A DNA stretch of 64,000 nucleotides from Myxococcota bacterium (GTDB lineage Bacteria; Myxococcota_A; Polyangia; Polyangiales; Houyiibacteriaceae): positions 1 through 64,000 of the forward strand of contig JBCCEA010000017.1 in NCBI GenBank assembly GCA_039030515.1. The letters are read 5' to 3'. The stretch's first letter is position 1; each line of letters begins with the position of its first letter. This document shows, in pieces, positions 10,739 to 12,932 of this stretch. Under the pieces are notes generated by a model that made no database searches, was not told where the DNA came from, and worked only from the letters and a program-made list of their open reading frames with translations. Made by a program: the position numbers and the translations under genes.

Positions 10739-11713
10739 GTGCGCGCTTGGTATTTGTCTGAAGATGCAGACCACCCCGAAATGACTTCCGTCGACGAATC
10801 TTCTCTGCCGGACGGAGAGGTAACGATCGCCGTTACGCACAGCTCTATCAACTATAAGGACGCACTCGCACTCCTCGGCAAAGCGCCCATCGCGCGCAAA
10901 AAACCCATGGTGCTCGGCATCGATGCAGCGGGCACTGTCTTATCAGACACTACGGGTACGCTTACCGCGGGTACCCCCGTCGTTGTCAACGGTGGAGGGC
11001 TGTCTGAAACCCGCTGGGGAGGCTATGCCGAGCGCATCGTGGTTCCGGCAGACCTCGTCATCCCTCTGCCGGGCCGATTCAGTCCGGCGGATGCAATGGC
11101 GATCGGCACGGCAGGCTATACCGCTGCCCTCTGCGTGAGCGCACTGGAAGAGGCCGGCGTCAAGCCCGAGGACGGCACGGTCTTGGTGACCGGCGCAACC
11201 GGAGGCGTGGGAAGCGTTGCTGTGTCTTTGCTCTCGAAGAAAGGTTTTGCCGTTGCAGCCGCAACCGGGCGAACCGATGAGCGCGACTACCTGGTCGATC
11301 TCGGTGCGAAGGAAATCGTCGACCGAAGCGAACTACAGGGGAAATTGCGCCCCTTAGGCAAACAGCGGTGGGCAGCCGCGGTAGATGTTGTAGGAGGCAC
11401 CGTGCTTGCGAACGTGCTGAGCATGATGAACTACGGCGGCAAAGTGGCGGCAACGGGTCTTGCGGGCGGCATGGATTTACCCGCGTCCGTAGCGCCCTTT
11501 ATTTTGCGAGGCGTGCATCTTCTTGGGGTCGACTCTGTTCAGGCGCCGCGTGAGAAGCGAGAATCGTCTTGGCGGCTTTTGGAAGAAGTCCTGCCTCCCG
11601 AGCATCTCAAGCACATCGCGTCCACCGTTTCCTTAGCCGAGGTAAAAGATACGGCCGCAAAACTACTCGATGGCAAAATCAAAGGCCGCGTCGTAGTTTC
11701 TGTAGCAGCATGA
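10739..11713 (+). CDS. acuI: Acryloyl-CoA reductase AcuI (YhdH/YhfP MDR family)
   Basis: SSINYKDALA, GIDAAG, IGTAGYTAAL, TGATGGVGS and VAPFILRGVHLLGVDSV; GTG start after an AGGAGG RBS. Confidence 0.9.
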   Translation: MRAWYLSEDADHPEMTSVDESSLPDGEVTIAVTHSSINYKDALALLGKAPIARKKPMVLGIDAAGTVLSDTTGTLTAGTPVVVNGGGLSETRWGGYAERIVVPADLVIPLPGRFSPADAMAIGTAGYTAALCVSALEEAGVKPEDGTVLVTGATGGVGSVAVSLLSKKGFAVAAATGRTDERDYLVDLGAKEIVDRSELQGKLRPLGKQRWAAAVDVVGGTVLANVLSMMNYGGKVAATGLAGGMDLPASVAPFILRGVHLLGVDSVQAPREKRESSWRLLEEVLPPEHLKHIASTVSLAEVKDTAAKLLDGKIKGRVVVSVAA

Positions 11714-11726
11714 CGCTCAAGGCTCG

Positions 11727-12932
11727 ATGTTCGATCTGTGCGAGCACAGCGTGTTCAAGCTAAGAGGGCCTCGCAAACTCCCCGGGTACCGATTCACGAC
11801 GAAGGCGGCAGTGACGTCACTGCTGCCTTCGTCAATTCATCTCCTGGCCTTAATGGGATGCGCCGCATCTGAATCTCGGACAGACCATGCAAACTCGGAC
11901 GCAATCTCGCAGATTACGTGTTTACCGGGAACCGAAGCGCGGGCTCGCCCCGAGGGACAAGAAGCCTTCGAACGATTGTTCTCTCAGACCATGCGCTTCA
12001 TCAAGGCTTATTCAGATCAGCTGAGGCAACGTCAGAGCGCTGTTACGGCCACCTACCCTGACCTCGAACATGGCTCCCTTCGTGACTTTGCAGACGTAAC
12101 ACAGCTACAACGTCATCTCGAATTTGTCCTGAGCCATCGAGCGCAAGCCAAGCCTTGTTTTGATCCGTCGATGCGCGCACTGGAGGAGTCGATGCGTGGG
12201 TACACGCCTAGCTCATCGCTTTTCTCACGTTCGAGTGCAGCGCGTTGGATCAACCGGAACTCTTATGCAGAAGCCTTTGATACCGCAAACTCGATTCATC
12301 AGGAGCTCCGAGAATTTGGTACGTCTTTTCCCTCAATTCTGGAGTTGATCCGCACCCCGTCTGGATGGACCAACCCCGTAGATCCTACCGCTTTGCCGGA
12401 TTTGTGGTCGGCAGCCGGATGGATACCGTTCTACATCGACCGCGAGGAAGCGGGTACAGAAGCATTTCGAAGTGGCTACGCCTATGCAGAGGTCATGGGC
12501 CCTTGGGGGATGCTGCGCGTAGACGAAATAGCAGGAGAGCCGTTTCAGGGCGAGATCGGAATGACCGTGCAGCGAGCCGGAACCTTCTACCCGCCGCACT
12601 TTCATCACGCGCCAGAAACGTACATGCCGCTTGAAATTTCAGACTGCGTCACACCAAACACTTTTCTCCTCACACCGGCAGAGTTTGGTGCACCCGGCGA
12701 GCCGATGACCAGCCCGCCTGTCTATCGACCGATGACTGCAACCACCTCTCCATTGATTTATATCGCCAGGCGGTACCGTCACGGTTTTCGCACGAAGGAA
12801 TGCGCTTTGGTCACCGTGTGGGCACGAACCGTGGTTCGTGACGGAAGAATTCAAGAGACCTCGCTTTGTCGATCTCCAGACCCGCTGATCCCTTACCTTG
12901 ATTCGGAACGTGCGGCACTGCAGTGCCACTAA
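11727..12932 (+). CDS. dddY: DMSP lyase DddY (exported cupin; probable lipoprotein)
   Basis: Blocks AKPCFDP, RWINR, LPDLWSAAGWIPFY, GYAYAEVMGPWG, EIGMT, YPPHFHHAPETY and LVTVWART match the DddY sequence as I recall it. Adjacent to acuI. Likely start GTG 11811, with lipobox LMGC. Confidence 0.85.
   Translation: MFDLCEHSVFKLRGPRKLPGYRFTTKAAVTSLLPSSIHLLALMGCAASESRTDHANSDAISQITCLPGTEARARPEGQEAFERLFSQTMRFIKAYSDQLRQRQSAVTATYPDLEHGSLRDFADVTQLQRHLEFVLSHRAQAKPCFDPSMRALEESMRGYTPSSSLFSRSSAARWINRNSYAEAFDTANSIHQELREFGTSFPSILELIRTPSGWTNPVDPTALPDLWSAAGWIPFYIDREEAGTEAFRSGYAYAEVMGPWGMLRVDEIAGEPFQGEIGMTVQRAGTFYPPHFHHAPETYMPLEISDCVTPNTFLLTPAEFGAPGEPMTSPPVYRPMTATTSPLIYIARRYRHGFRTKECALVTVWARTVVRDGRIQETSLCRSPDPLIPYLDSERAALQCH

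Follow-up and report, generated by a model that had tools for sequence, protein, structure and literature searches.

A divergent DddY-family protein with a probable lipid anchor, encoded beside acuI in an uncultured marine member of the Myxococcota

The acuI–dddY locus

The window analysed here is the whole 64,000-nt stretch at positions 1 to 64,000 of contig JBCCEA010000017.1 (assembly GCA_039030515.1). An acuI/yhdH-family gene is followed on the same strand by an open reading frame for a 401-residue DddY-like protein, and both genes were found as the initial annotation had claimed. The pair and its surroundings comprise:

5978–8581, minus strand: PAS and sigma-54 activator, then a tandem-rhodanese sulfurtransferase with a lipoprotein-like N-terminus
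8926–9002, minus strand: tRNA-Pro(TGG), its 3′ end facing away from the acuI–dddY pair
9270–10538, plus strand: 422-codon ORF immediately before acuI, matching RelA_SpoT weakly (PF04607, E 0.028)
10729–10736, plus strand: ribosome-binding site AGGAGGAG of acuI, seen in the sequence
10739–11713, plus strand: acuI/yhdH-family acryloyl-CoA reductase, 324 aa, from GTG 10739 to TGA 11713
11727–12932, plus strand: DddY-like cupin, 401 aa from ATG 11727, intact open frame
11835–11861, plus strand: hydrophobic stretch and lipobox-like IHLLALMG-C45 (pattern match; Cys45 codon at 11859–11861)
12588–12632, plus strand: cupin motif 1 (Y288, H291, H293, E297, Y299 and L302; aligned via A. pittii DddY)
12759–12827, plus strand: cupin motif 2 region (Y345, H352, W365 and R367; mapped by alignment)
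13055–14790, minus strand: tandem pair of SPFH/band-7 genes oriented towards dddY; the product of the second starts with an evident lipoprotein-like signal
14949–16601, plus strand: outer-membrane protein of the Omp85 family, its N-terminal region long and acidic

The anti-SD pairing of AGGAGGAG in front of acuI (−10.3 kcal/mol) is the strongest among four starts tested. The acuI product scores 401.5 bits on TIGR02823, above the cut-off of 297.25, which places it in the AcuI/YhdH subfamily (MDR012), and 416.2 bits on the AcuI equivalog NF051456, a near miss below the cut-off of 440; it matches E. coli YhdH with E 1.7e-89 and the AcuI structures 5GXE/5GXF with E 2e-80. Its nearest named relatives include other Myxococcota, at 58% identity. 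Among the strain variants listed (40 of 275 rows), 9 of the 11 in acuI are synonymous, which indicates that the gene is under purifying selection here.

Only 13 nt separate the acuI stop codon at 11713 from the ATG of the dddY-like gene at 11727, so that the latter shows the linkage to acrylate-handling genes that is used as a mark of DddY. Each of the two genes has a single match in the whole genome, and across the phylum sample both are scarce (the acuI family in 11 of 301 genomes, DddY-like genes in 5 of 401), so that chance hardly explains why they lie side by side. The junction itself is real: a contig from the probable source run, a marine metagenome, covers the acuI–dddY region, and a second-strain contig from another run bridges the junction (11399–11814, with 18 differences over 416 nt), all four runs that hold this DNA belonging to one study. 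For GC3 and codon adaptation, acuI stands at the 57th and 61st percentile of the genome's 1802 long ORFs and the dddY-like gene at the 15th and 24th, still inside the genome range. No sigma-70 promoter or terminator pattern was found in 8600–13300, Rfam returned no match except the tRNA, and neither dddA, dddC, acuK nor a regulator adjoins the pair. We infer that the two genes are co-transcribed.

A tRNA-linked island was considered and rejected, the 3′ end of tRNA-Pro being directed away from the pair, which is not typical of an integration site. Judged by its atlas neighbours and by a structural match (TM 0.55) to a GTP pyrophosphokinase, the ORF at 9270–10538 resembles a divergent small alarmone synthetase; other strains carry indels in it at 9297 and 10519. 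The tandem-rhodanese sulfurtransferase at 5978–8581 is a possible sulfur-related neighbour with a putative link to DMSP.

Identity, fold and active site of the DddY-like protein

In a sequence search of the PDB, the DddY-like protein returned only two matches, both Acinetobacter DddY (5XKX/5Y4K, E 1.4e-46 and 2.4e-45), to which it is 30.4% identical. The blocks by which it had initially been recognized (WIPFY, YAEVMGPWG, EIGMT, HFHHAPETY, which fits HxHxxxExY, and LVTVWART) are all present in the 401-residue frame, and a DddY alignment extends over the whole mature chain, leaving the proposed His/Glu/His metal ligands and the catalytic Tyr intact in comparison with Acinetobacter DddY. The protein clears Pfam PF16867 by one bit and falls far below the cut-offs of both DddY equivalogs, with 160.8 bits against 800 for NF043049 and 147.2 bits against 650 for NF053571. 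The partial copy in a second assembly was annotated automatically by NCBI as a DMSP lyase family protein.

The predicted model (AlphaFold, pLDDT 80) superposes with residues 61–401 on residues 22–395 of 5XKX (Z 43.0, rmsd 2.1 Å over 338 residues), a match that depends on the sequence match, since the alignment behind the model consists of DddY relatives and DddY is itself in the PDB. The next family in the structure comparison is DddQ, at Z 14.7, and the protein has the two-domain fold of about 400 residues (cap plus cupin) that is unlike DddQ, DddK, DddW and DddL. Motif 1 contains the catalytic Tyr, and motif 2 its His and terminal Trp; the equivalents in Acinetobacter DddY are Y260, H263, H265, E269, Y271 and L274 for motif 1 and Y331, H338, W359 and R361 for motif 2, with numbering transferred via A. 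pittii DddY, which is gapless against AbDddY over this range.

Among the 12 residues mutated in AsDddY (PMC12309256), mutation of any of five is reported nearly to abolish activity. All five are kept in the DddY-like protein, as are 11 of the 12 (T160, Y253, G258, G278, H291, H293, E297, Y299, L302, Y345 and H352), the sole replaced residue being D181, whose mutant retains 31% activity in AsDddY (PMC12309256). Also kept are the equivalents of F207, E227, Y260, W359 and R361. Of these, we take F207, E227, Y260 and R361 to be pocket residues. The pocket Trp is named by Lei et al. (10.1101/161257). Conversely, C68 and C90, either of which is present in 97 of 100 rows, are both lost here, uniquely among full-length rows, and D189, kept in 93 of 100 rows, is replaced by Pro. 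By motif and fold, the protein is to be counted a member of the DddY family, in neither of the curated DddY equivalogs, and it quite likely cleaves DMSP.

The N-terminus and the lipobox

The frame may start at ATG 11727, GTG 11751 or GTG 11811, the last giving 373 residues. GTG 11811 has the best ribosome site of the three but yields a signal without Lys or Arg, and a start at either upstream codon makes the signal basic but long, with the Cys at 37 or 45. Residues 1–58 of the model are disordered (pLDDT below 50), and the counterpart of residue 61 in mature AbDddY is residue 22; between Cys45 and the first conserved Cys, Cys65, lies a 19-residue polar tether. Canonical DddY has an A-x-A site immediately ahead of the domain; none is present here. 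LALMG-C45 fits a PROSITE-type lipobox pattern and fails the strict form [LVI][ASTVI][GAS]C, with an atypical Met at −2 of the lipobox Cys. The hydropathy of its h-region (1.38) is the lowest of 17 compared, the others spanning 1.67–2.59, and when the first 64 residues were shuffled 20,000 times, 3.4% of the shuffled sequences matched the pattern.

Lipobox and tether recur in 7 of 9 rows of the clade to which the protein belongs (6 of 8 distinct) and in 14 of 15 rows of a second myxobacterial lineage, and the genome encodes LspA. In canonical DddY, the pattern occurs in 5 of 52 rows, with the Cys inside an ordinary signal peptide. Because lipobox and tether are found in most of the clade and in the second lineage, a lipid anchor is probable here by descent, and is not special to this gene. 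The initial proposal of a lipoprotein-type DddY thus stands in so far as LLALMGC is present and an anchor is plausible by descent; the signal itself is weak here, and the form is not peculiar to this gene. Lipobox-type DddY homologues were also seen in Alphaproteobacteria (Henriciella) and in unnamed rows (P0007, P0042, P0022 and P0028). Lipid anchoring may, on this sequence pattern, be widespread outside the canonical clade.

A third DddY clade

When 1.84 billion representatives were searched with a family profile, 93 matched, many of them as fragments, so the DddY family is small. Of 100 aligned rows, 33 went into the tree; the aberrant rows P0241, P0233 and P0248, one frame-truncated row and two duplicates were left out of the alignment statistics and the tree, and L031 is not among the tree rows. 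In this tree of 33 rows, the DddY-like protein falls in a separate third clade of 8 rows (support 100/100), about as distant from canonical DddY as is the Shewanella-type clade. Its own branch is long: identity is 29–41% to the nearest group and 35–39% to the nearest full-length relatives, and clade relatives score 163–302 bits on NF043049. The clade shares an insertion after CFDP ending in RG, the signatures FQGEIG..QRAG and RTVVRDG, and the absence, between the two cupin motifs, of a hairpin of roughly 16 residues. Judged by these shared indels, the protein belongs in the third clade independently of its long branch.

When all species genomes were scanned by sequence pattern, only two others proved to carry the third clade; both are large, with 30 and 21 matches to the myxobacterial marker NF033768, and one of the two is filed under Myxococcota, the other under Pseudomonadota. 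Another member lies on a metagenome contig of 37% GC, which implies that the clade is not confined to myxobacteria. No acuI was found near any of the three other third-clade members with flanking DNA (L002, L003 and L031). A recent transfer from a known proteobacterial dddY was rejected, given the 35–39% identity to the nearest full-length relatives and GC3 and codon adaptation within the genome range, and 72,556 plasmid records held no match to the gene. Elsewhere in the family, Thauera and Accumulibacter, wastewater bacteria in which DMSP is unexpected, often carry canonical dddY (the clusters of P0052 and P0064).

A second DddY lineage in myxobacteria

Counting the source genome, DddY-like genes occur in 5 of 401 genomes of the phylum, 8 of 401 of the order and 8 of 88 of the family. 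The other seven carriers in the family all belong to one genus (g3; 7 of 55 genomes), and their DddY shares about 45% identity with Acinetobacter DddY and 30% with the window protein. A single origin of DddY in Myxococcota was rejected by an AU test (p = 0.001, on 33 of 100 aligned rows and with groups named after the tree was seen).

In all seven, dddY lies directly behind a 430-residue gene ending in IQYYF, with a gap of about 30–57 nt. The product of this gene has porin-like atlas neighbours, no Pfam or NCBIfam match, and a model that forms a 16-strand barrel matching general porins at low confidence (pLDDT 49.5). The porin-like and lipoprotein-type DddY modules of genus g3 are:

L009:1648–4328
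L010:8163–10839
L011:4306–7249
L012:7035–9758
L013:1056–3735
L014:4–2688
L015:115–2688

The porin-like gene is present in 7 of 7 dddY genomes against 2 of 48 others of the genus, and acuI occurs elsewhere in the genome in 3 of 7 against 4 of 48, these genomes being kin and the counts not independent. No acuI was found near dddY in the flanking DNA of genus g3 examined, and a search of the window's genome found no porin-like gene. The barrel is a candidate channel for DMSP or acrylate.

Host and habitat

The idea that the DNA comes from a probable myxobacterium gained support from several sides. A partial copy in a second assembly (P0003), labelled Myxococcota bacterium, is 99% identical over 236 residues; of the 120 Hsp33 matches listed, five carry a taxon in their name, in each case one of the Myxococcota (Myxococcota, Myxococcales, Sandaracinus and, twice, Sandaracinaceae), the best identity overall being 52%; and NF033768, an AgmX/PglI-type family, is matched 12 times in the 4.08-Mb, 85%-complete genome. 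On the taxon names among the Hsp33 matches, the host order is probably Polyangiales. A marine origin agrees with the four runs that hold this DNA, all of them marine metagenomes of a single study; no RNA run was listed with them, which is neutral as regards expression. Host association, and use of the enzyme on algal prey or for acrylate-based defence, which had also been suggested, found no support in any analysis.

A putative pathway from DMSP to succinyl-CoA

The genome carries Acs, four carboxyltransferase matches and three methylmalonyl-CoA mutase matches, common housekeeping genes of little weight alone, and one BCCT transporter on another contig. In this 85%-complete genome, the queries used found no CoA-transferase III, which argues against dddD or acuN, and there is no second PF16867 match. 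DddP and DmdA were likewise not found in the genome, the M24 matches being PepP-like and Map and the GcvT-fold matches GcvT and YgfZ. With Acs and the mutase present and an AcuN-type transferase not found, the gene set fits the ligase–AcuI route described for acrylate (PMC11497337, PMC5395565).

Taken together, the pair probably forms a two-gene unit for DMSP cleavage and acrylate handling, in which an envelope DMSP lyase would feed Acs, AcuI and the methylmalonyl-CoA route. What the data show directly is the order of the genes, their homology and the fold, the conserved residues, the phylum of the host and the presence of the downstream gene families; catalysis, lipidation and location, the acting ligase and the flux through the unit are put forward as follows. 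The DddY-like protein would be exported, most likely as a lipoprotein acylated at Cys45, and held on a membrane by its flexible tether. Its His293/Glu297/His352 site would bind a transition metal, which in turn would hold the DMSP carboxylate, and Tyr299 would take the alpha proton, so that DMS and acrylate are released in the cell envelope. Acrylate entering the cytoplasm would be converted to acryloyl-CoA, probably by Acs because no AcuN-type CoA-transferase was found. AcuI would then reduce the toxic acryloyl-CoA to propionyl-CoA, which the carboxylase and methylmalonyl-CoA mutase could turn into succinyl-CoA.

Discussion

Here, we describe what is probably, judged from sequence and predicted structure, a divergent third-clade DddY with a probable lipid anchor, in a phylum from which DddY has not previously been described. 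No known lyase of DMSP, an algal sulfur compound that yields the climate gas DMS, is faster than DddY, of which four homologues, all from one clade, are the only ones characterized according to PMC12309256. The gene has been described from Beta-, Gamma-, Delta- and Epsilonproteobacteria (PMC11497337, available text) and from Synechococcus (10.1101/161257), and a Myxococcota MAG with dddP is mentioned in PMC12596276. The main texts of the open-access literature searched gave no report of DddY in Myxococcota or myxobacteria, in agreement with the initial statement that it is uncharacterized there, and none of a DddY described as a lipoprotein.

Our comparators were DddY of Acinetobacter bereziniae (PDB 5XKX, 5Y4K and 8HLE) and of Acinetobacter sp. 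ZS25 (PMC12309256), together with NF043049. Like Acinetobacter DddY, the window protein has the two-domain fold, both cupin motifs, 11 of the 12 mutated residues and, by position, three of the four conserved Cys pairs. Unlike it, the window protein carries a lipobox and tether instead of a 21-residue signal peptide, lacks the hairpin between the motifs, has an insertion after CFDP, and has lost C68/C90 and replaced D181 and D189. The Shewanella/Ferrimonas/Synechococcus clade (NF053571; clade 2 of Lei et al.) is equally distant from canonical DddY and has the same motifs, and its dddY is usually near acuI (PMC3338564), as is the window gene; however, the window protein stands in a separate clade, and the Shewanella-type rows are without a lipobox.

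The order of acuI and dddY is not new. In Alcaligenes faecalis M3A, acuI likewise lies immediately 5′ of dddY on the same strand, and the two are reported to be co-transcribed and induced by acrylate (PMC3338564); the same source describes near-linkage in Arcobacter and in eight of nine Shewanella. In contrast to A. faecalis M3A, the 85%-complete window genome has no AcuN-type CoA-transferase among its matches, and its host belongs to the Myxococcota. DddL is a different family from the window protein, and presumably lacks the DddY cap domain. What the two would share is the form of a membrane-held cupin DMSP lyase, and acrylate is mentioned in the DddL paper as defending against grazing ciliates (PMC11497337).

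Whether such divergent proteins are lyases needs some caution. In the available text of Lei et al. (10.1101/161257), the true lyase status of divergent DddY clades is left open, high activity is limited to the Alcaligenes/Desulfovibrio clade, and the Shewanella/Ferrimonas/Synechococcus clade shows weak, non-reproducible activity in E. coli, which is the main reason why DMSP cleavage is not taken for granted here. Shewanella strains with dddY do produce DMS (PMC5395565). Gene context such as acuI was used by Lei et al. to mark true lyases (10.1101/161257), while acuI is also found in bacteria without a DMSP link (PMC3338564). One could therefore suppose that the main substrate is another acrylate-yielding compound, such as DMSOP or another sulfonium or betaine propionate, and that DMSP cleavage is weak or secondary. 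The indels peculiar to the third clade, including the loss of the hairpin of roughly 16 residues, would suit such a shift, as would the lack of acuI near the clade relatives, the caution of Lei et al. and the report that DMSOP is also bound and cleaved by DddY (PMC10686828). Yet the pocket and catalytic residues are unchanged and the source is marine, and the adjacency of acuI implies an acrylate product either way, so that we think another principal substrate unlikely.

Two further readings concern the state of the protein rather than its substrate. An active DMSP lyase might be soluble in the periplasm, or poorly exported, with the lipobox a relic or a chance pattern; this would explain the weak hydrophobic stretch and the missing basic n-region from GTG 11811, and it draws on the frequency of the pattern in shuffled sequences and in canonical DddY with ordinary signal peptides. 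It is decidedly unlikely in view of the lipobox, polar tether and conserved Cys common to most of the clade, and of the missing A-x-A site directly before the domain. Decay would account for another set of oddities: a gene acquired long ago together with acuI and now under relaxed selection could show a long branch, a uniquely lost Cys pair, Pro in place of D189 and a poor signal, and among the variants listed (40 of 275), residue-changing ones make up 2 of 4 in the mature part of dddY against 2 of 11 in acuI. However, the frame is fully open and all essential residues are intact, both Cys of C68/C90 were lost jointly and together with a shortened hairpin, the P0003 copy is nearly identical, and the whole genome is distant from its relatives, as the Hsp33 matches illustrate; decay thus appears highly improbable. 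Our preferred reading remains the envelope DMSP lyase working with AcuI.

More tentatively, and with rather more doubt than confidence, the two lineages may mean that marine Myxococcota took up DddY at least twice, each time in lipid-anchored form, and cleave DMSP at the outer membrane, once with an enzyme of the previously undescribed third clade and AcuI and once, in the related and species-rich genus g3, with a porin and a lipoprotein DddY. If this is true, contact-feeding myxobacteria would be unrecognized producers of DMS and acrylate on algal or animal surfaces, and screens that use canonical DddY cut-offs would overlook such producers. The global weight is probably small, because few lyase genes in ocean metagenomes are rarer than dddY (PMC11497337), a homologue occurs in only 5 of 401 sampled Myxococcota genomes, and the present DNA was found in the runs of one study. 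For the family, the value of the window gene lies in the acuI that adjoins it, which makes it a clean test case for the third clade; if it is active, DMS production would be extended to the Myxococcota, and membrane tethering would be added as a form of DddY.
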